Shown: positions 15,682 to 61,777 of the stretch, in pieces
Layout: each line of letters starts with the position of its first letter
Numbering within the stretch: the stretch's first letter is position 1
NCBI GenBank assembly: GCA_050123235.1
Contig: JASFHL010000005.1
Location: 30,695 to 94,694 of the forward strand
Reading direction: 5' to 3'
Source of the DNA: Candidatus Woesebacteria bacterium
Lineage (GTDB): Bacteria; Patescibacteriota; Microgenomatia; UBA1400; PJMF01
DNA: 64,000 bases
Position numbers and translations under genes: made by a program
Notes under the pieces: model-generated
Told to the model about the DNA's origin: nothing
The model's input: only the letters and a program-made list of their open reading frames with translations
Databases searched by the model: none

Positions 15682-16404
15682 TTGAAAAAAAATATGAAAC
15701 AACAACGCATGCGTGAAGCAAAAGAATTCGAAGAAAAAGTGATTCAGATAAACCGAGTTTCAAAGAAAACTAAGGGTGGAAATAGTATTGGTTTTTCTGT
15801 TTTGATGGTGGTAGGTGATAAAAAAGGCAGAGTTGGTGTCGGATTAGGAAAGGCAACAGATGTAGTTTCTTCAATGAAAAAGGGCATTAAAAAGGCTAAG
15901 AAAAAAATGATTACTGTTCCTTTACAAGGTGCTACTATTCCTTTTGCTATTACTGTAAAAAAAGGAGCTGGTAAGGTGATGTTAAAGCCGTCCCCTATTG
16001 GTTCTGGAGTAATTGCAGGTGGTCCAGTAAGAGCAGTGGTTGAGGCTGCAGGTATCAAGGATATTTCAGCTAAAATTTTAGGAAGCGAGAATCAAGCTTC
16101 TAGTGTTTATGCCACTTTTGAAGCCTTGAAACAAATTAGAAATATTGTTGAAGTCCGGGGTATTAAGTTGAAATCTATAGATGAAGTTAAGCAAGAAGAA
16201 AAAGATAAAGTAGAAAAAATTGAGAAAAGAGCTAAACAAGTTGCTGATAAACAAAAGCCAAAGGCTGCAGCAAAAAAGCCAGTTAGCAAAAAGAGTATTG
16301 TAAAAAAAGCTTCAGCCAAGAAAACCGTGGCAAAAAAAACAGTCAAAGCATCAAAGAAAGTAGCTAGCAAATCCAAGACTGCCAAACAAAGTAAGAAAAA
16401 ATAA
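15682..16404 (+). CDS. rpsE: 30S ribosomal protein S5 (with ~75-aa Lys-rich C-terminal extension)
   Basis: 240 aa; S5 core (GGNSIGFSVLMVVGDKKGRVGVGLGKA); long K/A-rich tail. rplO follows directly, with no L30 gene between. Confidence 0.93.
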   Translation: MKKNMKQQRMREAKEFEEKVIQINRVSKKTKGGNSIGFSVLMVVGDKKGRVGVGLGKATDVVSSMKKGIKKAKKKMITVPLQGATIPFAITVKKGAGKVMLKPSPIGSGVIAGGPVRAVVEAAGIKDISAKILGSENQASSVYATFEALKQIRNIVEVRGIKLKSIDEVKQEEKDKVEKIEKRAKQVADKQKPKAAAKKPVSKKSIVKKASAKKTVAKKTVKASKKVASKSKTAKQSKKK

Positions 16405-39522: not shown

Positions 39523-42500
39523 ATGAAATTTTTTAAAAAACCCCTCGTTTTTATTTTTTCTTGTTTTCTTTTTCTTTTAGTTAGCTTATTAGCAAATAAA
39601 AAAATTCATTTTTTTTCTAGCTCAGTTCCTGCTTTTGCTCAAAGCACTGACTCTCAAATTTTGATTAGTGCCAAAGAAGGAGATCAAGGTTTCAAAGCTG
39701 TGATTGCTCAATCTTCTTTGGAGGAGCCAGCTGTTTGGGTTGGAGATCATAAGCTTAATGGTGAGCTTGAATTGAGAGTTTATAAAGCAACGCTTACTTC
39801 CTTACTTGAATATCTAGCCCATGACGAAGATAACAATCAAGTTAATCCTGATGTTAGAGCTTCAGAATTAGAGCAGCTGGTAACTATCAATGAGCCGATT
39901 GCTTTTGCTCAAAAAAAGATTCTTCTTCCTTTGGAAGAAACTGGAGTCTGGTATTTGGAAGCTAGATTTAAAGGAGAAACTTGGGTAGGTAAGACTTTTT
40001 TGATTCGTTCTAAAACAGGAGTTTTAGTTAAAGAAGGAAATAATGAGCTTATCTTTTGGGGTCAAGATTATGCTAGTAAAAGAAGTATCAATCAAGGAGA
40101 AGTCACAGTTTATAATTTGGAAAATTCTATTCAAACTCTTGCTCAGAGTAATTTTAATCAAGATGGCGTTGCTAAAACAGGGATTAGCACTGATGCTGAT
40201 ATAGCTATTTTTAAAAATGGTAATGACATATCCCTGACGCCGATTAATCTACGTTTCTTAGAAGGCAACTGGGGTTACAATTTTTTTACTCCCAAAGAAA
40301 GAAAAGCCAAGTTTTTCACTTTTACTGATAGACCGCTTTATAAACCAGGAGACGTGATTAAATTTAAATCAATTATTAGAGACGATGATGATGCGGTCTA
40401 TTCTATTCCCAAAGGTTTAGCTCAAGTGAAGATTTATTCAGATGATTATGACAATCCTGTTTTTGTAGACAATTTTCCTATTACTGATGAAGGCAGCATC
40501 GCTGGTGAAGTAACACTGCCGGCTGATGCAAGTACAGATTATTATTATCTAGAGGTAAACTTAGATGCAACAGAAGAAGCTGACTATTATAATTATAATT
40601 TACGTGATTATGTTTATTTTCAGGTGGAGCATTATCGAAAACCAGAATATTCAATAGACATTGAAGCAGAAGAATCAGAGTTAATAGCTGGTGATAGTTC
40701 CTCTTTTACTATCACAGGTAGTTATTTCTTTGGAGAACCAATTAGCAAGCAAACTGTGAAGTATAAAATTTATTCAGCTCCTTATTGGTCTTCTGATTAT
40801 TACGGGCAAAGAAAAATTGAATTAAGTGACAATTATCGCTATGGATATTACTGGGGTAAAGAAGTGACTAGTGGTACGGCTGTGTTTAACAGTCAGGGTG
40901 AAGCAGTGATTGATTTTGAAGCTCTACTACCTGAAATAGATGCAACAGCTTCTTCTTATACCTCAAATACGTCCAAGAAAAGCCAAATTTATGCAATTGA
41001 AGCAGAGTTTGATGACGGTTCAGGAAATTCAGTTTTTGCTAGAAAAAATATTTTAGTGCGTAATGGTGAGTTTGGCATTTTTAAGAAAAACTATCAAAGT
41101 ACTGCGCTACTTAATCAAGAAATAGATGTTCCAATCAAACTAGTAGCTTATCAAGATGATGTTCAAATAAGTAAAATTGATTTAACTGTCAAGCCTGTGC
41201 ATCAAACTTGGGTGCGTGAAGAAGTAGAAGGTCAGAAATATCCTCGTTTTCGTGAAGAAAAAAAAGAGTTAAAAGAATTTTCTATAGTTACAGATAAACA
41301 AGGTGAGGCCACTATTAAGTTCACTCCTGAAAAGCTTGGTTCTTATGTGATGACAGTAGTGGCAGAAGATTCCAGGGGCAACCAAATCTCTAAAGATTTT
41401 TATTTTTGGATTACTGATGAAAAACAAGCTGTTTTCAGTGGTCAATATGAACAACATCTTGATATCCAAATTGATAAAGAAGAATATCAATTTCAAGACA
41501 CAGTCAAGGCAATTATTTCTTCTTCTGAGCCAGATAGGGATCTTTTCTTATCATTTGAAAGAGATGGGGTGAGGCGTTTTCAAACAGTTAAACTTCATGC
41601 TCAGACAGCCACTGTTGAACTGCCTTTGCAACAGACAGATATGCCGAATATTTTTTTATCAGTAGCAAGTTTTACCAAAGGACGCTTAGATAGTAACAAT
41701 CGAGTTGTTCATGTATCCCCTGATCCTCAAAAATTAACTGTTGAAATTAAAGCTAATAAAGAACGATATGTGCCTGCAGAAACAGTGACGCTTGATATTT
41801 TTACTAAAGATTTTGCTGGTAATGCTATCCCTGCTGAGACTGCAGTTTGGGTAGTTGATAAAGCAATCTTTGAATTGACTAATCAAGGAACAGCTGATAT
41901 TTTTAATCGCTTTTGGAGTGAACGTTATTTAAATACAGCAAAGTCTCACTCTTTAGAAGGCATTTTTATGATGAATATGGGAGGTGGCGGTGGCTGTTTT
42001 ACAGGAGATACTCAGATTTCTATTGCTAACGGAAAGGACAAGGCAATCAAAGATATTAAAATTGGCGATCAAGTTTTAACAAAGAAGAATCCCAATGATA
42101 AGCCAAAAGCAACTAAAGTAACTAAAGTTTTTGAGCATCAAGTTGCTGGCTATTTCTTAGTCAATGCTTCGCTTAAAGTTACCCCAGAGCACATCATGTG
42201 GATCAATGATCGCTGGCAAACTGCCTCTCATTTAAAAATAGGCGATAAGCTTAGGGACAGTCAGAATAATGAAATAGAAGTAGTTTCACTGGAATGGCAA
42301 GATGGCTTATTTAAGGTTTTTAACTTAGAAGTAGAAAATGCTCATACTTTTTTTGCCAATGATATCTGGGTACATAATCAGAAAGGTGATGGTGGTGGTA
42401 GAAAAATTTTTGAAGATACAGCTTATTGGAATCCTTTTGTTAAAACTGACGCCAATGGTCATGCTCAAATTACTTTTAAATTGCCAGACAATTTAACTAC

Positions 42501-44670
42501 CTGGGTGATTAGTTCAGTCGGAGCTACCCAAGATACTAAAGTCGGTCAAAGTACTCAAGAGATTCTTGTTTCCAAGAGTGTTGTTTTAAGGCCAATTTTA
42601 CCTAATCTTTTACTTATAGAAGACGAAATCGTAATCCCTGCTATTCTTCACAACTTCACTGATGAAGATCATGAGTTTAAAGTAAACTTAGAGACTGATA
42701 GTGCAGAGATTTTAGATCAAAATAAACAAACAGTGATAGTAAAATCAGGCGAGTTTGCCCAAGTAGCTTGGCATTTAAAAGCAAGTCAAGCAAATGAAGT
42801 AGCAGCTTTTACTTTTTCAGCCCAAGCAAGTGATAATCAGGAGCTATCAGATATTATCACTCGTAAGATTCCAGTAAGAAAGTTTGGTTTTTGGGAGAAA
42901 ACAGGTGAAAATTCAGAAGGTTCTGGTAGCTTTACTCTTAGCTTAAATCCAGATAGTGATAGAGAAAAATCTAAATTCACGCTTTTGCTCAGTCCAAGTC
43001 TGATTTCCAGCTTACCTTCTGCTATGAAATATTTAGTAGATTATCCTTACGGTTGCACAGAACAAACTACCAGCCGTTTTGTGCCAGCTGTGATTGCTAA
43101 GGAAAACCCGCAGCTTTTTGCTGAGGCTCTGAAAGATAAGGATCTTGATGCCATTATTAATAAATCTATTAGCAAATTAGCTGATCATCAACAAAGTGAT
43201 GGCGGTTGGTCTTGGTGGTCGAATGGCGAGAGTGATTATTTTGTCACAGCCTATGTTTTAGAGTATTTACTGAGGGCAGAAAAATTAGGATTTGATGTAA
43301 ACTATTTCATTAAAAATCAGGCAAAGCGTTTTCTTTCTACATTGAGACAAGAAGATCGGGAAAAAGCTGCTAATCCTTCAGCTGAAGAGTTGAGAGAGTC
43401 TATTGAGGAATTGATTATTAGATCCTATGCTCTTTCCCTCTTAGGAGAGAGATTGGAAAGCTTTCACGGTTTTGAAGGTTTAAGTCCGGATATTTTAGCT
43501 CTAGCAGTAATGAGTAACTTTAATAATGGTAATACTGATCCTCAAACTAATGGTCTGGATTATCTTTTATCTTTGGCCAAAGAACAAGGAGATAGTTTAT
43601 ATTGGCCAGCTGGTAAAAGTAGATACTTTGGTTCTCAAGCTGCCTCTACAGCTTTAGCTATTAAAGCACTTGCTAAGGCGAATTATCAATTGCCAAAGGC
43701 TGGTCAAGCAGTTAAGTTTTTATTAAAGAATCGTAAGAATCGTTATTGGGCAAACACCTTTGCTACTGCACAAATTGTGCAAGCTGCAGTTGATTTTGCT
43801 CATAGTAGCGAGCAAACTAATCCTGATTTTAGTTTCACAGTTTCTTTAGACAACCAGCAACTTCATCAAGCCCTAGTCAATGATTCGATGCAAGAATTAG
43901 AAGCAGTGGAGATTAAAGGTACAGATTTAGCAGCAGCCACTGCTCAGTTAGCTGTTGAAAGATCAGCTGGCCCAGGTCAATTGTATTTCACCCTCTTGAC
44001 CGAAGAATTCCGTACCAATAAAAACGCTGACGCAGTCAGTCATGGCATCAATATCAAGCGTAAATATGTCAATACCAAGGGTGAAGATTATTCAATTGGC
44101 GTAGGAGATATTATTAATGTTGAGCTCACAGTAGGTGGCCTAAATAGTACAGACTATTATGCAGTGATTGAAGATCAATTACCAGCCGGTATGCTGCCAA
44201 TTAATAAGAAGCTTAAGAGTGAACAATTTACTCAAGAAACAGACAATTACTATAGCACAGCAGGGCAAGAGGTGACTGAAAATGGGATGATTATTTCTTT
44301 ATATAGAATCAGTCCAAAAGAAAAAATTTATACTTATCAAGCTCGAGTAGTTAATCAAGGCAAATTCATTGCTCCGCCAGCTAAAGTTTTCTTGATGTAT
44401 TCTCCTGAAATCTATGCTAGGACTACAACTGAAACAGTAGAAATTATGGCAGAGTCTAAAGCTAGCGGGTTCAAGCGAATCCAGGAATTGATTGGCGCTG
44501 ATAGACAGCCAATAGTGCTAATTCTTCTTATTTTAATTATTCTGCTTAGCCTATCGTTAATTGGATTTTTGATTTTGAAGAAAAAAAGACCGGCTACTTT
44601 TAAAAAATTGAAGAGTAAAATTTTAGCTTTGAAAAAAGTTCGAAAGAAAGATAATTCAGAAAAGAATTAA
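39523..44670 (+). CDS. giant alpha-2-macroglobulin/thioester-containing-protein-like surface protein with an embedded Hint (mini-intein/BIL-type) domain
   Basis: 1715 aa; N-terminal signal peptide; C-terminal TM helix + basic tail; thioester-type motif DYPYGCTEQTTS (compare PYGCGEQ of A2M); long beta-rich N-terminal region consistent with MG domains; complete Hint domain at aa 825-952. Confidence 0.8.
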   Translation: MKFFKKPLVFIFSCFLFLLVSLLANKKIHFFSSSVPAFAQSTDSQILISAKEGDQGFKAVIAQSSLEEPAVWVGDHKLNGELELRVYKATLTSLLEYLAHDEDNNQVNPDVRASELEQLVTINEPIAFAQKKILLPLEETGVWYLEARFKGETWVGKTFLIRSKTGVLVKEGNNELIFWGQDYASKRSINQGEVTVYNLENSIQTLAQSNFNQDGVAKTGISTDADIAIFKNGNDISLTPINLRFLEGNWGYNFFTPKERKAKFFTFTDRPLYKPGDVIKFKSIIRDDDDAVYSIPKGLAQVKIYSDDYDNPVFVDNFPITDEGSIAGEVTLPADASTDYYYLEVNLDATEEADYYNYNLRDYVYFQVEHYRKPEYSIDIEAEESELIAGDSSSFTITGSYFFGEPISKQTVKYKIYSAPYWSSDYYGQRKIELSDNYRYGYYWGKEVTSGTAVFNSQGEAVIDFEALLPEIDATASSYTSNTSKKSQIYAIEAEFDDGSGNSVFARKNILVRNGEFGIFKKNYQSTALLNQEIDVPIKLVAYQDDVQISKIDLTVKPVHQTWVREEVEGQKYPRFREEKKELKEFSIVTDKQGEATIKFTPEKLGSYVMTVVAEDSRGNQISKDFYFWITDEKQAVFSGQYEQHLDIQIDKEEYQFQDTVKAIISSSEPDRDLFLSFERDGVRRFQTVKLHAQTATVELPLQQTDMPNIFLSVASFTKGRLDSNNRVVHVSPDPQKLTVEIKANKERYVPAETVTLDIFTKDFAGNAIPAETAVWVVDKAIFELTNQGTADIFNRFWSERYLNTAKSHSLEGIFMMNMGGGGGCFTGDTQISIANGKDKAIKDIKIGDQVLTKKNPNDKPKATKVTKVFEHQVAGYFLVNASLKVTPEHIMWINDRWQTASHLKIGDKLRDSQNNEIEVVSLEWQDGLFKVFNLEVENAHTFFANDIWVHNQKGDGGGRKIFEDTAYWNPFVKTDANGHAQITFKLPDNLTTWVISSVGATQDTKVGQSTQEILVSKSVVLRPILPNLLLIEDEIVIPAILHNFTDEDHEFKVNLETDSAEILDQNKQTVIVKSGEFAQVAWHLKASQANEVAAFTFSAQASDNQELSDIITRKIPVRKFGFWEKTGENSEGSGSFTLSLNPDSDREKSKFTLLLSPSLISSLPSAMKYLVDYPYGCTEQTTSRFVPAVIAKENPQLFAEALKDKDLDAIINKSISKLADHQQSDGGWSWWSNGESDYFVTAYVLEYLLRAEKLGFDVNYFIKNQAKRFLSTLRQEDREKAANPSAEELRESIEELIIRSYALSLLGERLESFHGFEGLSPDILALAVMSNFNNGNTDPQTNGLDYLLSLAKEQGDSLYWPAGKSRYFGSQAASTALAIKALAKANYQLPKAGQAVKFLLKNRKNRYWANTFATAQIVQAAVDFAHSSEQTNPDFSFTVSLDNQQLHQALVNDSMQELEAVEIKGTDLAAATAQLAVERSAGPGQLYFTLLTEEFRTNKNADAVSHGINIKRKYVNTKGEDYSIGVGDIINVELTVGGLNSTDYYAVIEDQLPAGMLPINKKLKSEQFTQETDNYYSTAGQEVTENGMIISLYRISPKEKIYTYQARVVNQGKFIAPPAKVFLMYSPEIYARTTTETVEIMAESKASGFKRIQELIGADRQPIVLILLILIILLSLSLIGFLILKKKRPATFKKLKSKILALKKVRKKDNSEKN
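41995..42378 (+). other. Hint / mini-intein-like (bacterial-intein-like) domain inside the A2M-like ORF
   Basis: Starts with Cys in block A (GGGGG|CFTGDTQISIANG); block B TPEH; blocks F/G VFNLEVENAHTFFANDIWVHN; ends His-Asn. The +1 residue is Gln and both junctions are poly-Gly (MMNMGGGGG / QKGDGGG). Confidence 0.85.
43051..43065 (+). other. putative thioester site (GCTEQ) of the A2M-like protein
   Basis: DYPYGCTEQTT resembles the CxEQ thioester motif (PYGCGEQNM in eukaryotic A2M/C3). Confidence 0.6.
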
Positions 44671-46860: not shown

Positions 46861-47310
46861 ATGCTTTTACTTCATAGTTGTTGTGCTGATTGTACTATTA
46901 AGTTTCTTAAATCATTAGAATATGATTCAACCGCTAAAGTAGCTAGAGTTGCTCTATTTTTTTACAATCCAAATATTCATCCTAGATCAGAGTATTTATC
47001 TAGGCTGGCTGCCTTAAAAAATTTTTTTGCTAATCAGAAATTAAAAGTTATTATTTTTAATTGGCGACCAAGTGAGTATTTCAAAAAGATAATAAAGTTG
47101 AAAGATTCTCAAGAAAATAAAAAAATTTTTATTGAGAAAAAAGATCGCTGTCCTCTTTGCTGGCATTTAAGATTAGAAAAAGCTTTCCAATATGCTAAGG
47201 AGCACGATTATCAAGAATTATCTTCAACTTTGCTAAGCAGTTCTTATCAAAATCAAAAAAAGATTTTAGCTATAGCCAAAAAATTGGCAAAAAAATATAA
47301 AGTTAAATAG
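46861..47310 (+). CDS. QueH-like (DUF208, epoxyqueuosine reductase-like) protein, short
   Basis: 149 aa; N-terminal LLLHSCCADC (QueH has LLHxCCAPC) and a later CPLCW..RL Cys motif; shorter than typical QueH. Confidence 0.45.
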   Translation: MLLLHSCCADCTIKFLKSLEYDSTAKVARVALFFYNPNIHPRSEYLSRLAALKNFFANQKLKVIIFNWRPSEYFKKIIKLKDSQENKKIFIEKKDRCPLCWHLRLEKAFQYAKEHDYQELSSTLLSSSYQNQKKILAIAKKLAKKYKVK

Positions 47311-47395
47311 ATTACCAATTCCTGTTTTCTAGCAAAAGATTGACAAAACAAATCACTGTTTGTTAAACTACAAATTATTCTGATGAATAATTAAT

Positions 47396-47452
47396 ATGCA
47401 AATCAATAAATTTAAAAACAATCAGCTTCTCCTTATTCTTACTATTCCGTAA
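47396..47452 (+). CDS. leu-operon leader peptide (18 aa: MQINKFKNNQLLLILTIP)
   Basis: Short ORF with four Leu and two Ile codons clustered at codons 11-17. Its stop codon lies inside the first stem of the attenuator, 123 bp upstream of leuA. Confidence 0.7.
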   Translation: MQINKFKNNQLLLILTIP

Positions 47453-47532
47453 GGACGGAGTTGTGATTGTTAGGCAACCTCCGTCAGGAGGTTTTTTTAA
47501 TTTTAAAACCTCCAAAAAACGGGGGTTTTTTT
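47445..47532 (+). promoter_or_regulatory. transcription attenuator of the leu operon (alternative hairpins + tandem terminators)
   Basis: Segment 1 TCCGT (446-450) pairs with ACGGA (455-459). Segment 2 GACGGAG (454-460) can alternatively pair with CTCCGTC (479-485). Terminator 1 is CCTCC-GTCA-GGAGG + T7 (478-498). A second terminator-like hairpin is CCTCC-A6C-GGGGG + T7 (509-532). Confidence 0.7.
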
Positions 47533-47574
47533 ATATAGAATGCTAAAAATTAATTTTTCAAAAAAAGGAAATTT

Positions 47575-48753
47575 ATGAAAAAACAATTTAAAAAAAACAA
47601 ATTGATAATTTTCGATACTACTCTCCGTGATGGAGAACAAGTACCAGGAGCTAAATTAAACACAGAAGAAAAAGTGATTATTGCCAAGCAACTAGAAAAG
47701 CTAGGTGTAGATGTGATAGAAGCTGGTTTTCCTATCTCCAGTCCTGAAGACTTTCGATCAGTTAATGAAGTTGCTAAAAAAATAAAGCATGCTGTAGTTT
47801 GTGGATTAACTAGAGCAGTAAAGAAAGATATTGAAGTGGCAGCAGAGGCCTTGCAGACAGCAAAGTTTCCTAGAATTCATACTGGGATTGGTGCCTCTGA
47901 TGTTCACATTAAACATAAATTCAAATCAACTAGGAAAAGAGTACTTGAGCAAGCTATTAAGGCAGTCAAGTATGCCAAAAAATTTGTTGATGATGTGGAA
48001 TTTTATGCTGAGGATGCTGGTCGAGCTAATGATAAATTCTTGTCTAAGATGGTTGAGGCCGTGATTGCAGCTGGAGCTACTACTGTCAATATTCCTGATA
48101 CTACAGGTTACTGTTTCCCAGAAGAATTTGCTGCAAAAATCAATTATCTTTTTGAGAATGTCAAAGGTATTGATCAGGCTGTGATTAGTGTTCATTGCCA
48201 TAACGATTTAGGTTTAGCCACAGCTAATAGTATTGCTGCTATTCAAGCAGGAGCAAGACAAGTTGAAGTCACCATTAATGGCATTGGTGAACGGGCAGGA
48301 AATACAGCCTTAGAGGAAGTGGTGATGGCAATGGAAACACGGGCCAAACAAAACTTGGATATTGATATTCAAACTAAAGAAATATCTAAGACTTCTAGCT
48401 TGGTTTCAGAAACGATGGGTATTCCAATTCAACCTAATAAAGCAATTGTTGGAGCCAATGCTTTTGCTCATTCTTCTGGAATTCACCAAGATGGTTTGCT
48501 CAAAAAAAGACAAAATTATGAAATCATTAATCCCAAGACAGTTGGGATTAATAGTTCTAAGATTATTCTAACTGCTCGTTCTGGCAGAGCTGCCTTGAGA
48601 TTCAGATTAGCTGAGTTAGGTTTTGCAATGGAAAAAGAAGAGATCAGTAATATTTATGGAGATTTTCTCAAAATAGCTGATAGCAAAAAAGAAGTGACAA
48701 ATAAAGACTTAAAAGAACTTATTAAAACAGTTGGATTGCAAAAGGGAGCTTGA
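47575..48753 (+). CDS. leuA: 2-isopropylmalate synthase / (R)-citramalate synthase family enzyme, catalytic domain only (no C-terminal LeuA allosteric domain)
   Basis: 392 aa; DTTLRDGEQ and HCHNDLGLA(T)AN motifs of the HMGL-like/LeuA family. It ends right after the TIM-barrel and subdomain I, and is followed by leuCDB. Confidence 0.8.
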
Positions 48754-51929: not shown

Positions 51930-53381
51930 TTGGTATATAGATTATTCATGAAAGCTACTCAAAATGTGTTAGATATAATTTTTGTTAATCCTTTCCCAGA
52001 AAATGCTTATGGTATTAATAGTGAAACAGTAGAACCTCCCTTAGGTTTGGGTTACTTGGCCGCAGTTGCTGAAGAGAGAGATTTTTCTTGTGAGATAATT
52101 GACGCTAATATTTTGGAACTCAAGATTGCTCAAGTTCTCCGAATTATCAAGCAAAAAAAACCAAAAATTGTTGGTATTAATGTCAATCTTTATTCTTATA
52201 AAGTTGCCTTAAAATTGGCAGACAAAATAAAAAAAGCTCTTCCAAAAACAACTGTAATTTTAGGTGGTCCTACACCAACCAGTGCTCCTAGGCAAGTAAT
52301 GAAAGCTTGCAAAACTGATGCTGTCTGTATTGGGGAAGGAGAAAATACTTTAACAGAAATTTTAGATAACTATAAACAAGGCAAACATCTTTTTAGAAGT
52401 GTGGCAGGGATGATGTATCGGAGTAGCAGTGGTAAAAGGATTATGAACAACAAGCCTCGAGCGTTTATACGAAATATTGATACTATTCCCTTTCCTGCCT
52501 ATCATCTTTTTCCAGATCTTAATAAATATAAATCTAGGGCTGTTAAAAAGCCATTCGCTCCTCTTTTGACCAGCCGCGGCTGTCCTTTTCAATGTGTGTT
52601 TTGCAGCAAAGATGTATTTAAGTACGCCTGTCGCATGAGGTCCCCAGAAAACGTAATAGATGAAATTGATATGCTAGTCAAGAAATTTGGAGTAAAACAG
52701 CTAGATATCTTAGATGACAACTTTACAATCAACAAAAAAAGGACAGAGCGTATTCTTGATTTGATAATAAAACGAAAATACGATCTACATATTAATTTAC
52801 AGTCTGGAGTAAGAACAGAAGGCATCGACACCAAAATAATCAGAAAAATGAAAAAGGCAAAGATTTTTAAAATCCCCTTTGGCGTAGAATCAGGCGATCC
52901 TCTGATTCTTAAAAGAATCAAAAAACAACTCAATTTAAAAAAAGTTTTGGCTTGCACTAAAATGGCAAAAAAAGCTGGGATGAAGGTTTATGGCTTTTTT
53001 ATGATTGGTTTACCAGGTGATACTGCTGAAAGTATGCAAAAAACCATAGACTTTGCTATAAAAATGAACCCTAATATTGCAAATTTCAGTATCACCATCC
53101 CTTTTCCCGGAACAGAGCTTTATCAGACGGTAAAAAAAGAAGGTAAGTTTCTTGTTGATATGGATAATGGAATCGATGCTGGCTTTTATGCCAATAAGGT
53201 TTTTTATGAGTTAGAAGGTATGGATAAAGATGTGGTGCTTAGTTACTACCAGAAGGCAATGAAAAGCTTTTATTTCAGACCGAAAAAAATATTTGAACTC
53301 ATCATGAGTATGAATTCATGGAGTGAATTTCAGTGGTTTGCCAAAACTTCTTTTTCAGTTTTTAAAAAATTGTTTAGTTGA
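51930..53381 (+). CDS. B12-binding radical SAM domain protein
   Basis: 483 aa; N-terminal cobalamin-binding-like region, then radical-SAM Cx3Cx2C (GCPFQCVFCSK). TTG start at 51930 or in-frame ATG at 51948. Confidence 0.75.
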   Translation: MVYRLFMKATQNVLDIIFVNPFPENAYGINSETVEPPLGLGYLAAVAEERDFSCEIIDANILELKIAQVLRIIKQKKPKIVGINVNLYSYKVALKLADKIKKALPKTTVILGGPTPTSAPRQVMKACKTDAVCIGEGENTLTEILDNYKQGKHLFRSVAGMMYRSSSGKRIMNNKPRAFIRNIDTIPFPAYHLFPDLNKYKSRAVKKPFAPLLTSRGCPFQCVFCSKDVFKYACRMRSPENVIDEIDMLVKKFGVKQLDILDDNFTINKKRTERILDLIIKRKYDLHINLQSGVRTEGIDTKIIRKMKKAKIFKIPFGVESGDPLILKRIKKQLNLKKVLACTKMAKKAGMKVYGFFMIGLPGDTAESMQKTIDFAIKMNPNIANFSITIPFPGTELYQTVKKEGKFLVDMDNGIDAGFYANKVFYELEGMDKDVVLSYYQKAMKSFYFRPKKIFELIMSMNSWSEFQWFAKTSFSVFKKLFS

Positions 53382-53505
53382 TTTTTTTTAGTTGTAATAA
53401 AGAGCCGTAAGAGAAAATTTGTCTAAATAAGGAGAGTTCTGCTGCCTTTGTATTTGACAAAAGTAAAAGGTTATAGATATAATCATCGACGTATTGGATA
53501 CATAA

Positions 53506-53574
53506 ATGTTAAAAATAAATTCACAAAATCAGTTTAATAACGTTCTTGTTATTATTCTTAGCCTCTCAACGTAG
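53506..53574 (+). CDS. ilv-operon leader peptide (22 aa: MLKINSQNQFNNVLVIILSLST)
   Basis: Run of Val-Leu-Val-Ile-Ile-Leu codons. The stop TAG overlaps the first G-run of the attenuator. Its N-terminus resembles the leu leader (MQINKFKNNQ vs MLKINSQNQFNN). Confidence 0.7.
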   Translation: MLKINSQNQFNNVLVIILSLST

Positions 53575-53627
53575 GGGGATTTTGTCTTGGATTAAAAAAT
53601 CAAAGCTCCCCCAAGGGGGGCTTTTTT
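53571..53627 (+). promoter_or_regulatory. transcription attenuator of the ilv operon
   Basis: GGGGG (574-578) can pair with CCCCC (608-612) as an antiterminator. Alternatively CTCCCCC (606-612) pairs with GGGGGG (615-620) and is followed by T6 (622-627), forming a terminator, 87 bp upstream of ilvB. Confidence 0.7.
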
Positions 53628-53713
53628 AGTTTTCTTAGCTGATTATTGTTTATCGGCCAAATAAAGCTAAATAAAATAGTGAACTAGCAATAGAGTTAGA
53701 AAGAAAAACAACT

Positions 53714-59956: not shown

Positions 59957-61777
59957 ATGAAGGATTATCAACTTATCTCTGTTAAAACTAAAAAAGTAGT
60001 CAAAGAAACTGATAGCGTGACTACTGATCCTAAAACCGGTAGCCCGCTGGAAGTAGCTTATGACTATAGCAAAATTAAAAAACTTTTTAATTCTTATATT
60101 TACAAAAATGCTCCAATTAGTGCTAGCAAGTATTTGGATCTTTATCCAATCCATGACTATAACAACATTGTTTCTTTGCAAGAAGGAGCCACTCCTTTGT
60201 ATGAGAGCCAAAAACTACGCCAAGAGTTTGGCTTGAGCAAATTATATTTTAAATATGAAGGAGCTAATCCTACTGGTTCATTTAAAGATCGTGGCAGTAT
60301 GGTAGAAGTTACTAAGGCTATTGAACTTGGAGCTAAGGGCGTAACTCTTGCTTCCACTGGGAATATGGCCGCTTCTGTAGCTGCTTATACTGCTAAGGCA
60401 GGTATTGATTGCTATATTTTTGTGCCAGAAGGCACTCCAGCAGGAAAATTAGCTCAAGCTTTATCTTGTGGTGCCAAAGTGATTCAAGTCCGAGCTGATT
60501 ACAGTACAGCTGCCAAACTAGCTGAAAAGGTCGCCAAAAAATATGGTTTTTACTTAGCAGGAGATTATTGCTTTAGACAAGAAGGTCAGAAATCTATTGC
60601 CTATGAAATCATAGAACAACGTCTATTCAAAGTTCCAGATTATATTTTAGTCCCAGTGGGTGTGGGCACTAATATGGCAGCCATTTGGAAAGGATTTAAA
60701 GAATACTATAAATTAGGCTTGATTGATGAACTTCCCCAGATGATTGCTGTTCAAGCAGAAGGTGCTTCCCCAATTATTAAGTCTTTTAATTTGAATCTTA
60801 GAAAATATGCCGTAGTAGACAAGGTAGAAACAGTTTCATCAGCCATTGCGGTAGGAAATCCATTGGATGCTGTTAAAGTAATGAAGCTACTCAAAGAATC
60901 CAAAGGCTTTGCTGTAGCTGTTAGTGATGAAGATACTTTAGAATACCAACATCAACTAGCCAAACAGGAATCAATTTTTGTAGAACCATCTAGCGCTACT
61001 ACTCTAGCAGCCTTAGCAAAATTAAAAAAACTTAAAAAGCTAAAAAAAGATGCTAGCTATATTTGTGTTCTCACCGGAGCAGGTTTGAAAGACCCAGCTG
61101 CTGCTTTAAAAATTCTAGCAGAACCACCCACCATAGAGCCTGATCTCAAAGAAGTTGATAAGATTTTATCTTCTAATATTTTGGATGTGCGCTCATATGG
61201 TGCTAAAAAAAGAGAAGAGATTGTTTTCAAGAAACTGCCAACTAGCTCTCAACTAAAGAAGTTTACCAAAGAAAAATTTGATCTTTCTTTGAGTAAAGAC
61301 TATTTTGAAGAAGTTTATAGACAGGTAAAAAATTTCTTTAAAAAAGGTAAAAAGATTAATCGCGCTGATCTGCAGTACATTATAGAAAATACCATTCAAA
61401 CTTATATCCCAGATGAAAAGAAAGTGCTTAAAGTTCTTGATTTTGAAATTACCACTAAGTATGCTCAACCACCTTTAGCAAAAATGACTGTAGAGGTAAA
61501 AAAGAAAAAAATACAAACCAAAGCCAAAGGAGTAGGTCCAGTGGATGCTGCTATTAATGCTTTACTTAAAGCCTGTCAAGAAAATGGTAAAAAGAAAGTT
61601 AAACTAACCGATTACAAGGTAGAAATTAACACTACTGGTACTGATGCAGCAGTGGATGTAGAAATGAAATTAGAAGATTCTAACAATCAAGTGGTAGGAC
61701 AGGGCACTTCACCTGATATTATCCAAGCATCGATTGCAGCCTTTGTGAGTGGTTATAATATGCTTTATTTGAAGTAG
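59957..61777 (+). CDS. threonine-synthase-like fold-type-II PLP enzyme fused to a C-terminal LeuA-type allosteric (LeuA_dimer-like) domain
   Basis: 606 aa; PLP-lysine motif ANPTGSFKDRGS (ThrC-type P-[ST]-x-[SA]-F-K-D). The C-terminal ~130 aa (GVGPVDAAINAL...LTDYKVEINTTGTDAAVDVEMKL....QGTSPDIIQASIAAFVSGYNML) match the conserved pattern of the LeuA/CimA C-terminal regulatory domain. Confidence 0.65.
   Translation: MKDYQLISVKTKKVVKETDSVTTDPKTGSPLEVAYDYSKIKKLFNSYIYKNAPISASKYLDLYPIHDYNNIVSLQEGATPLYESQKLRQEFGLSKLYFKYEGANPTGSFKDRGSMVEVTKAIELGAKGVTLASTGNMAASVAAYTAKAGIDCYIFVPEGTPAGKLAQALSCGAKVIQVRADYSTAAKLAEKVAKKYGFYLAGDYCFRQEGQKSIAYEIIEQRLFKVPDYILVPVGVGTNMAAIWKGFKEYYKLGLIDELPQMIAVQAEGASPIIKSFNLNLRKYAVVDKVETVSSAIAVGNPLDAVKVMKLLKESKGFAVAVSDEDTLEYQHQLAKQESIFVEPSSATTLAALAKLKKLKKLKKDASYICVLTGAGLKDPAAALKILAEPPTIEPDLKEVDKILSSNILDVRSYGAKKREEIVFKKLPTSSQLKKFTKEKFDLSLSKDYFEEVYRQVKNFFKKGKKINRADLQYIIENTIQTYIPDEKKVLKVLDFEITTKYAQPPLAKMTVEVKKKKIQTKAKGVGPVDAAINALLKACQENGKKKVKLTDYKVEINTTGTDAAVDVEMKLEDSNNQVVGQGTSPDIIQASIAAFVSGYNMLYLK

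Follow-up and report, generated by a model that had tools for sequence, protein, structure and literature searches.

A putative leucine-responsive leader-peptide attenuator upstream of leuA in a Candidatus Woesebacteria genome and related leaders in other CPR bacteria

The enterobacterial leuL attenuator consists of a short ORF containing four consecutive Leu codons, which are minor CUN codons, followed by alternative 1:2, 2:3, and 3:4 hairpins ahead of leuA. In Firmicutes, the leu and ilv operons are commonly under T-box control. To our knowledge, almost nothing has been reported on gene regulation in CPR/Patescibacteria, and a literature search found no paper linking these bacteria to leader peptides or attenuation. 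Attenuation by BCAA leader peptides nevertheless occurs well outside the Proteobacteria (PMC5794164, PMC10272879, and PMC1262725). The ilv-leu operon of Staphylococcus aureus has a leucine-rich attenuator peptide that acts together with CodY (PMC5794164), the Corynebacterium ilvB gene has an uORF encoding a BCAA leader peptide (PMC10272879), and actinobacterial ilvB and leuA genes have leaders too; in the actinobacterial LEU element, the Leu codons base-pair to the SD of leuA, as translational control or a pseudoknot (PMC1262725). Some of the actinobacterial leader ORFs are on leaderless or short-5'UTR transcripts.

The leader described here resembles that of E. coli and Salmonella leuL (Rfam Leu_leader) in its Leu-run ORF, CUN Leu codons, alternative hairpins, and terminator before leuA, and it follows the same ribosome-position logic, as reproduced by masked folding. 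However, the peptide has 18 aa versus 28 in leuL, two tandem terminators are present and are coupled by 4:5 and 3:6 pairings, there is no SD (the leaders of relatives are leaderless or nearly so), and the host is a CPR bacterium. A second leader, before ilvB (MLKINSQNQFNNVLVIILSLST), is of the type known from E. coli ilvGMEDA (ilvL) and ilvBN (ivbL), in which mixed Leu/Ile/Val/Thr codons match the products of the operon, although the sequences are unrelated and the leu and ilv leaders here appear to be paralogous. Unlike the actinobacterial LEU element, the read-out is an intrinsic terminator, and both phyla and sequences differ from those of the S. aureus, Corynebacterium, and actinobacterial systems. 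The biological purpose and the terminator/antiterminator read-out are shared with the T-box leaders of Firmicutes; however, those sense uncharged tRNA directly, without translation, and none was detected here.

The window, by which we mean the whole 64-kb stretch of DNA that was analysed, comes from a Candidatus Woesebacteria MAG, and the promoters, leaders, hairpins, and leuA described below are on the + strand. It contains leuA, leuC, leuD, leuB, ilvB, ilvN, ilvD, ilvC, and an aminotransferase gene, in agreement with an earlier sequence-only reading that placed a full leu/ilv pathway in a CPR-like genome. The leuA gene (47566..48753; SD AGGA at 47566-69 and ATG at 47575) is followed by leuC, leuD, and leuB, which reach 51827. 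Its product is a short-form 2-isopropylmalate synthase of 392 aa that matches NF002086 with 610 bits (cut-off, 532) and has no LeuA_dimer regulatory domain. Since LeuA is without this allosteric domain, a transcriptional sensor of Leu would be physiologically sensible.

The putative leader peptide ORF (MQINKFKNNQLLLILTIP; 47396-47452) comprises 18 sense codons, with its ATG at 47396-98 and TAA at 47450-52, and is located 122 nt upstream of leuA. The four Leu codons (CTT CTC CTT CTT at 47426, 47429, 47432, and 47438) and two Ile codons (47435 and 47444) recognized earlier are all present, together with a further Ile codon at position 3 of the peptide (Ile3). The four Leu residues fall within five consecutive codons, and the candidate regulatory block L11 L12 L13 I14 L15 T16 I17 (CTT CTC CTT ATT CTT ACT ATT) extends over 47426..47446. 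The C-terminal half of the peptide (LLLILTIP) is hydrophobic. All four Leu codons are CUY, versus 23% of the Leu codons in the window genes, and over 16 leaders the share of CUY is 73%. The 64-kb window contains 22 short ORFs in which 4 or more of 5 residues are Leu, and a Leu-rich short ORF was rejected as a stand-alone signal because it is not significant. What makes the leader ORF significant is its location, the logic of the hairpins, and its conservation, and not Leu richness alone.

A sigma-70-type promoter is predicted between queH and the leader ORF (47340..47369), with TTGACA at 47340-45, an 18-nt spacer with TG, and TAAACT at 47364-69; its score of 10/12 consensus positions describes a consensus match only. 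No Shine-Dalgarno sequence was found upstream of the leader ATG at 47396. Only 15 of the 47 window genes have a strong SD core, and therefore an SD-less leader ATG is not unusual in the window. The leader ATG is 26 nt from the -10 box, versus 6 to 16 nt in relatives. A mini-ORF (ATG AAT AAT TAA, encoding MNN; 47383..47394) that is separated by 1 nt from the leader ATG starts 13 nt from the -10 box, which in this comparison of spacing is the distance of the leader ATG in relatives. It may have a role such as termination-reinitiation, or the leader may have been split by an indel.

Folding of the 170-nt leader gives a z score of -6.1, and none of 200 dinucleotide shuffles folds as well. The pairs on which the sequence-only reading had built its switch are all present, and most are longer than it described. 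Its 1:2 pair, TCCGT/ACGGA, is the core of a small 7-bp hairpin, ATTCCGT-AAGG-ACGGAGT (47444..47461; arms at 47444-50 and 47455-61; -6.7 kcal/mol), which covers the last leader codons and the stop codon and has a P of about 0.96 when the ribosome is at Q10-L12. Its 2:3 pair, GACGGAG (47454-60) with CTCCGTC (47479-85), is extended by UUG/CAA over a bulged C47478. The resulting antiterminator (47454..47485), between segment 2 (GACGGAGUUG; 47454-63) and segment 3 (CAACCUCCGUC; 47475-85), has a total of 10 bp and -14.8 kcal/mol, which is equalled by 9 of 200 shuffles. The 3:4 terminator, given earlier as CCTCC-GTCA-GGAGG with U7, is T1, AACCUCC-GUCA-GGAGGUU (47476..47498; stem at 47476-93 and U7 at 47492-98; -10.4 kcal/mol). 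The antiterminator overlaps the 5' arm of T1.

Three pairings go beyond those of the sequence-only reading: a long 1:2 hairpin and the 4:5 and 3:6 pairings. The long 1:2 hairpin (47418..47470; -19.7 kcal/mol) has a P of 0.98 in free RNA and pairs the Leu/Ile codon region (CUCC and UUCUUAC) with GUAAGGA..GGAG; like the small one, it overlaps segment 2. Its UUCUUAC-N6-GUAAG core is common to two related loci, L162 and L167. Formed in untranslated RNA, it may serve as a pause hairpin.

The second hairpin with a U7 tract, previously taken simply to follow the first, is indeed present at 47505-32 but is part of the switch. This terminator, T2 (5:6; 47505..47532), has the form AAAACCTCC-N7-GGGGGTTTT (its arms can also be written AAAACCUCC-N7-GGGGGUUUU), with the hairpin at 47505-29, U7 at 47526-32, and an energy of -10.1 kcal/mol; it ends 42 nt before leuA. 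The 4:5 hairpin (47487..47513) pairs GGAGGUUUU (47487-95) with AAAACCUCC (47505-13) in 9 perfect bp. It has no U tract downstream, and when T1 leaves segment 4 unused, this hairpin ties up the 5' arm of T2. The 3:6 pairing (47476-84 with 47519-27), an alternative to T2, forms an outer stem around 4:5, and the two together, a compound hairpin with an energy of -23.4 kcal/mol, are followed by the U tract of T2 itself. Through the pairing of segments 4 and 5 and of segments 3 and 6, one decision would switch both terminators.

Folding with and without masking of the segments, as had been suggested for checking the switch, indicates that the alternative structures are thermodynamically competitive: with segment 1 masked, 2:3 (-14.8 kcal/mol) beats T1 (-10.4 kcal/mol), and with segment 1 free, the combination of 1:2 and T1 is favoured. 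Ribosome-masked folding is an equilibrium model, and its result varies with the assumed footprint (A+11 versus A+13). In this model, T1 has a P of 0.94 in free RNA, and the same value with the ribosome at I17, at P18, or at the stop codon, from which it covers segment 2 and lets T1 form. Placing the A site at L15 lowers the P of T1 to 0.09; for I14 the value is 0.43 or 0.09 according to the footprint edge assumed, and for L11-L12 it remains 0.89 to 0.93. For the antiterminator, a ribosome at L15 gives a P of 0.86 to 0.92. At the T2 stage, the off states (free RNA and stop codon) have 3:6 at 0.90 and T2 at 0.06, and the stalled state (L15) has 4:5 at 0.96, 3:6 at 0.03, and T2 at 0.02. A switch pattern, defined as a P of at least 0.8 in free RNA, at least 0.8 at the stop codon, and a minimum of at most 0.25, was found in 2 of 150 shuffled versions of the window leader.

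Read-through is predicted only for an A site at L13 to T16 (L-I-L-T). The stalling geometry proposed earlier is supported, with a qualification: in the model, a stall at L13-T16 opens the switch and arrival at the stop codon closes it, but the first two Leu codons, L11 and L12, are not decisive. A stall there preserves T1 (P of about 0.9) along with the small 1:2 hairpin, and therefore severe starvation could lead to termination and not to read-through.

This profile raises the question of which amino acid is sensed. If Ile14, Leu15, and Thr16 are the decisive codons, the attenuator would be multivalent, like that of E. coli ilvGMEDA, and would report Ile or Thr as much as Leu. The predicted restriction of read-through to (L13) I14, L15, and (T16) is in keeping with this, as are the T, I, N, or S residues interspersed in the Leu run of many relatives and the neighbourhood genes, which also make Ile and Val. 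However, the Leu run (usually CUC CUU) is the sole residue feature kept in the leader of every relative, and the Ile and Thr positions are not conserved. Furthermore, ilvB is already served by its own V/L/I-rich leader, and the model, being dependent on the footprint, lacks the resolution to rule out that L11-L13 contribute. We consider a multivalent attenuator unlikely.

A Leu-run mini-ORF followed by a terminator was found upstream of orthologous short-form leuA genes at 15 further distinct loci with highly divergent sequences, so the comparison of leuA upstream regions that had been recommended recovers both the leader ORF and the hairpins. All named sources among these loci are CPR: Dojkabacteria (L001) and Roizmanbacteria (L003/L004). 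The leader reads MKINKSLLLLTLP in L162/165 and MKAIFTNTNLLLIPTHT in L167, and the others are in L166, L163, L164, L169, L171, L005, L065, L083, L089, and L104. In 11 of the 15 relatives, a TTGACA-17-TAnnnT promoter is found 6 to 16 nt upstream of the leader ATG. The peptides have 13 to 27 aa and are highly variable in sequence except for the Leu run. Genome and metagenome scans gave LeuA identities of at most 74%, and the best protein match (77%; L161) is without the leader, which is also absent upstream of leuA in the close homologues L002, L011, L014, and L170.

The relatives being distant, conservation was tested at the level of architecture, by masked folding and shuffles, and not by column-by-column covariation. 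Segments 2, 3, and 4 vary between loci (CCUCC/GGAGG, CCCCG/CGGGG, and GCUCCC/GGGAGC types) with complementarity kept. The masked-fold profiles include the Roizmanbacteria-type leaders, in which segment 2 is inside the ORF. The switch pattern was found in 7 of 12 relatives versus 7 of 480 of their shuffles, and three more relatives display a dip in T1 with recovery at the stop codon. No clear dip was found in the masked-fold model for L167 and L005, 2 of the 15 relatives' leaders.

A covariance model (R1) was built from the leaders of 8 relatives, with the window sequence left out. Its best match in the 64 kb is the window leader (47402-47502; 50.3 bits; E = 3.5e-7, the E values being rough owing to a shortened calibration), the only other match below E = 0.01 in the window is the ilvB leader, and the next has an E of 0.049. 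In 961 kb of related loci, matches at E of 0.01 or less are found before leuA (about 835 nt upstream in L103); those in L089 and L104 are on the opposite strand, before a divergent gene judged by eye to be ilvB. R1 also recovers held-out family members, and it has no matches in Bacteroidota homologues with 65 to 66% LeuA identity.

The ilvB leader is a second putative attenuator (53454..53630), with a promoter, TTGACA-18-TATAAT, predicted at 53454-83, a Val/Leu/Ile-rich ORF at 53506-53574, and a terminator at 53602-24 with a U tract. R1 matches it at 53519-53630 with 38.6 bits (a similarly rough E of 4.9e-5), as the second-best match in the window. The same model matches both of them, which makes the leu and ilv leaders paralogues within a single family. 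Peptide composition follows the operon, being Leu-rich before leuABCD and having V-L-V-I-I-L before ilvBN.

The distribution of these leaders also bears on whether the hairpins are regulatory at all. They could be structured spacers or terminators that act unconditionally, for instance on queH transcripts, next to a chance Leu ORF in AT-rich DNA and with no translational regulation. The 22 Leu-rich short ORFs in 64 kb, the 18 terminator-like sites in 10 kb of the region, and the lack of an SD at the leader ATG would all be expected in such a case. However, a consensus promoter is found between queH and the ORF, and two such terminators between promoter and leuA would silence the operon. Furthermore, the ORF/terminator pair recurs before leuA in 15 other divergent loci, the covariance model is specific to regions upstream of leuA and ilvB, and the switch pattern is rare in shuffles, which makes unconditional termination very unlikely.

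A trans-acting factor that stabilizes 2:3, such as uncharged tRNA as in a T-box, an RNA-binding protein, or a small molecule bound by a riboswitch, would leave the ORF incidental. Such control would be compatible with the alternative 2:3 and 3:4 hairpins and has a precedent in the T-boxes of Firmicutes leu/ilv operons. However, at gathering thresholds Rfam returned only tRNA in the window and the 15 related loci, and none of its leader families (Leu_leader, His_leader, Phe_leader, Thr_leader, Trp_leader, and leu/phe leader) reached the gathering score. With the cut-off relaxed to an E of 10, the only leader-family matches were subthreshold alignments to the terminator, the best being Phe_leader (21.7 bits; GA, 55) and His_leader (18.7 bits; GA, 49), and the T-box model had no match even at this level in 47250-47650. 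The leader, of about 150 nt from TSS to T2, is without a specifier-loop or T-box sequence, and its conserved part is a Leu codon run that shares its reading frame with an ATG and a stop codon, not an aptamer-like core. We regard control by a trans factor as highly improbable. A functional role for the small hydrophobic peptide itself, with hairpins that just end the short transcript of its ORF, is hardly credible: LLLILTIP is hydrophobic and relatives also have short peptides, but length (13 to 27 aa) and sequence vary widely outside the Leu run, the ORF is always directly upstream of leuA or ilvB, and the CUY codon choice suits the needs of RNA pairing.

Overall, the element before leuA is probably a Leu-responsive, ribosome-mediated (leader-peptide) transcription attenuator of leuA-leuC-leuD-leuB, a reading that is well supported by masked folding, the 15 further loci, and the covariance model. 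Transcription would start from the TTGACA/TAAACT promoter, and the 18-codon ORF would be translated as the RNA emerges. With ample charged tRNA-Leu of the CUY-reading kind, the ribosome would reach the UAA at 47450 and cover segment 2, T1 (3:4) would form, and RNA polymerase would stop at its U7. A polymerase that passes T1 would meet T2 or the 3:6/4:5 compound hairpin before the second U7. Without translation, the long 1:2 hairpin would hold segment 2, and T1 would again form. During slow decoding of L-I-L-T, the ribosome would cover segment 1, allowing the 2:3 antiterminator to form in place of T1. The freed segment 4 would then pair with 5, T2 would not form, and polymerase would read into leuA.

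A broader proposal is that leader-peptide attenuation is vertically maintained and regular in the BCAA operons of Microgenomates-type CPR, as one paralogous leu and ilv family often with leaderless or near-leaderless transcripts. The Woesebacteria version would be a two-stage fail-safe, in which one 2:3 decision is passed via 4:5 to two successive terminators, compensating for the lost allosteric leucine-binding domain of LeuA. We put this forward tentatively, as something that may be the case but that we rate at a little below an even chance.

The attenuation mechanism is a textbook one, and the conceptual gain is modest. If the conserved attenuator is real, however, it would be indirect evidence that CPR organisms couple transcription and translation (tightly, in the Microgenomates-wide reading), that their amino acid biosynthesis is regulated by tRNA charging, and that the BCAA pathway in CPR genomes is in active use and is not a decaying relic. 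The leaders form an uncurated RNA family with at least 16 distinct members, a candidate for addition to Rfam that could be used in the annotation of CPR genomes.

Outside this set, leaders of the form "MKKKINHLLLIKK" in Flavobacteriaceae loci (L008-L010 and L088) were discarded, being inside the upstream coding region. A possible leader, MHHQKDILVISILLLEDFGG, was seen in a Proteiniphilum locus (L031).

The 264-nt intergenic gap between queH (46861-47310) and leuA (47575-48753) probably contains a functional leucine-responsive leader-peptide attenuator. This was the claim of the sequence-only reading, and it is supported by masked folding, by the loci of relatives, by a covariance model of their leaders (R1), and by a paralogue upstream of ilvB. 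On the forward strand, the gap carries a sigma-70-type promoter (TTGACA at 47340-45, an 18-nt spacer, and TAAACT at 47364-69; 10/12 consensus matches), a three-codon mini-ORF, MNN* (ATG AAT AAT TAA, 47383-94), and, beginning one base past it, an 18-codon leader ORF (ATG 47396 to TAA 47450-52; peptide MQINKFKNNQLLLILTIP). Two tandem terminators follow, T1 (AACCUCC-GUCA-GGAGGUU, 47476-93; U7, 47492-98) and T2 (AAAACCUCC-N7-GGGGGUUUU, 47505-29; U7, 47526-32), and then the leuA Shine-Dalgarno (SD) sequence (AGGA, 47566-69). All three pairings described previously were found: a small 1:2 hairpin (ATTCCGT/ACGGAGT, 47444-50 with 47455-61; -6.7 kcal/mol), the 2:3 antiterminator (GACGGAG/CTCCGTC plus UUG/CAA across a bulged C, 47454-63 with 47475-85; -14.8 kcal/mol), and T1 itself as 3:4 (-10.4 kcal/mol). 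The 170-nt leader is structured far above chance level (folding z = -6.1), with an equally good fold in 0 of 200 shuffles.

The ribosome was modeled by imposing single-strandedness from A-site -15 to +11 or +13, and helix probabilities were calculated for the moment of RNA polymerase arrival at each U tract. In free RNA, T1 has a probability of 0.94, 2:3 is about 0, and the second-stage 3:6 pairing reaches 0.90. With the A site at Q10 to L12, the small 1:2 hairpin forms and T1 stays at 0.89 to 0.93; it is 0.89 (A+11) or 0.74 (A+13) at L13 and falls to 0.43 or 0.09, respectively, at I14. At L15, T1 is 0.09 and 2:3 is 0.86 to 0.92, while 4:5 is 0.96, T2 is 0.02, and 3:6 is 0.03. T1 recovers to 0.67 (A+11) or 0.94 (A+13) at T16, and at I17, P18, or the stop codon, it is again 0.94, with 2:3 at about 0 and 3:6 at 0.90. 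The three canonical states therefore match what the classical model demands, and T1 and T2 are, in the model, switched jointly. When the region upstream of T1 was dinucleotide-shuffled, the switch pattern (free, ≥0.8; stop, ≥0.8; minimum, ≤0.25) appeared in 2 of 150 sequences. The proposed ribosome-stalling geometry thus holds for a stall at L15 and for the stop codon, but a stall at L11 or L12 leaves T1 high. Only codons 13 to 16 would be decisive in this equilibrium picture, in which a ribosome halted at the first Leu codon would not prevent termination.

A longer 1:2 hairpin (47418-70; -19.7 kcal/mol), absent from the sequence-only reading, pairs Leu/Ile codons (CUCC; UUCUUAC) with GGAG and GUAAGGA and is predicted to predominate in untranslated RNA (P = 0.98). 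The hairpin and U7 of T2 are present as reported, but not as a mere follower of T1, since 4:5 and 3:6 tie them to the switch. The T2 5' arm (47505-13) shows perfect complementarity to segment 4 with its U tract (GGAGGUUUU, 47487-95), and the T2 3' arm (47519-27) can pair with segment 3 (47476-84), yielding a compound hairpin (-23.4 kcal/mol) ahead of the second U7. The folding model thus integrates T2 into the switch, which matters because an unconditional T2 would render antitermination at T1 pointless. Two tandem terminators under chained control would be an architectural twist. A 1:2 core, YYCUUAC-N6-GUAAG, lying over the last sense codons and UAA, is common to the window (47436-47455) and two relatives' loci, L162 (587-679) and L167 (728-842); in both relatives, a U run comes next, as in a pause or terminator hairpin. 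A terminal Pro-stop (CCG UAA) is shared by the peptides of the window and L162.

Taken alone, a Leu-rich ORF has no meaning: short ORFs that start with ATG and have four or more Leu in five residues occur 22 times in the window. This one derives its meaning from position, codon choice, pairing, and conservation. It lies after a promoter and before leuA, and its Leu codons, which pair with purine-rich segment 2, are all CUY (4/4, versus 23% of Leu codons in window genes; P of about 0.003). The ATG lacks an SD sequence, which is not disqualifying because a strong SD core precedes just 15 of 47 window genes. The leader ATG of relatives is located 6 to 16 nt past the -10 box, and their leader transcripts are probably leaderless or nearly so. 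In the window, MNN* occupies this near-leaderless start position, and loss of one A would join it in frame to the leader; MNN* could be a termination-reinitiation device or an assembly indel.

The window LeuA is identical to a protein annotated in a “Candidatus Woesebacteria” MAG; no closely related genome was found, and other homologues have 77% identity or lower. Among the homologous loci fetched, conservation of the leader ORF and hairpins was borne out in 15 further distinct loci, where promoter, Leu-run mini-ORF, and terminator lie directly upstream of a short-form leuA: L162/L165 (MKINKSLLLLTLP), L167/L168 (MKAIFTNTNLLLIPTHT), L166 (MIIKINNNLNLLLNLTN), L163 (MTSNKINNSLLLSLLISD), L164 (MKFKLIVLSLNLLNFQ), L001 from Dojkabacteria (MKKTTSNNTGLLLNPKT), L003/L081/L082 and L004/L084 from Roizmanbacteria, L169, L171, L005, L065, L083, L089, and L104. 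Hairpin sequence varies by locus (CCUCC/GGAGG, CCCCG/CGGGG, or GCUCCC/GGGAGC), and mutual complementarity of segments 2, 3, and 4 is kept despite these differences. Of 12 relatives tested by masked folding, 7 gave the complete switch pattern (versus 7 of 480 of their shuffles), and in three more T1 fell at the Leu run and rose again at the stop codon; L104 and L089 also showed the switch pattern, and L083 showed a dip with stop-codon recovery. CUY accounts for 73% of Leu codons over 16 leaders. When every locus was scanned with a stricter pattern in the sequence preceding leuA, leader-terminator pairs emerged in 13, 12 of them within about 200 nt of the gene and one (L103) 835 nt upstream. Homologues L161, L002 (long-form LeuA), L011, L014, and L170 had no leader, and Bacteroidota loci gave no matches. 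In L164, a 57-aa ORF without a Pfam match (1459-1632) lies between the terminator and leuA. In a Proteiniphilum sp. MAG (L031), a candidate Bacteroidales leu leader (MHHQKDILVISILLLEDFGG), with a long hairpin and then a U tract, lies about 40 to 180 nt upstream of leuA; R1 does not detect it.

R1 was built from eight relatives' leaders with the window left out. Its top match in the window is 47402-47502 (50.3 bits, E = 3.5e-7) and its second is 53519-53630 (38.6 bits, E = 4.9e-5); all others have E ≥ 0.05. In 961 kb of related loci, R1 recovered held-out leaders in L065, L004/L084, L083, L005, and L103, plus opposite-strand matches before a divergent gene in L089 (2215-2317) and L104 (371-473), with no further matches at E ≤ 0.01. 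The divergent gene, read by eye, is probably ilvB, its N terminus resembling IlvB, and leu and ilv attenuators would lie back to back there. The second window match falls within what appears to be a second leader-peptide attenuator, paralogous to the leu leader (53454-53630, forward strand): a perfect TTGACA-18-TATAAT promoter (53454-83), a leader ORF (53506-53574; peptide MLKINSQNQFNNVLVIILSLST), and a terminator of 10 bp with a U tract (53602-24), 90 nt before ilvB. Val, Leu, and Ile are abundant in its peptide, which fits an ilvBN-ilvD-ilvC unit downstream, and in the model, the terminator of this leader is off as long as the ribosome has not passed the V-L-V codons and on once it has. That two paralogous leaders each match the downstream pathway in amino acid composition is a strong argument for a regulatory role of the ORFs.

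Functionally, the window leader is of the classical type of the Escherichia coli/Salmonella leu, ilvGMEDA, and ilvBN attenuators. Leu-rich leader peptides are documented in Staphylococcus aureus (PMC5794164), Corynebacterium (PMC10272879), and Actinobacteria (PMC1262725), and leader-peptide attenuation has been inferred upstream of amino acid biosynthesis operons in flavobacteria (PMC9723704). An Rfam search ruled out a T-box and found no membership in curated families; the leu leader adds to a well-known kind of attenuator as part of a small uncurated family. The full-text literature, of which coverage was incomplete so that we assert no priority, yielded nothing tying CPR/Patescibacteria to leader peptides or transcription attenuation. 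The mechanism itself is well known, and its presence here is among the few concrete regulatory inferences for CPR bacteria.

Several other forward-strand genes of the window were noted. LeuA is a short form (392 aa) without the LeuA_dimer domain, and a 606-aa protein (59957-61777) fuses a threonine-synthase/dehydratase-like PLP domain (PALP; TIGR00260 thrC, 246 bits, over its cutoff) to this allosteric domain; the LeuA regulatory domain may have moved to a different enzyme of the branched-chain amino acid (BCAA) cluster. A B12-binding radical SAM gene (51930-53381, 483 aa) lies within that cluster, between leuB and the ilvB attenuator. The ribosomal protein genes for S5 (15682-16404) and L15 (16408-16848) are directly adjacent, with no L30 gene between, an arrangement consistent with CPR affiliation. 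A very large ORF (39523-44670, 1715 aa) has weak matches only, to an intein C-terminal splicing motif, a DnaB-like fragment, and an SCO2321-family membrane protein.
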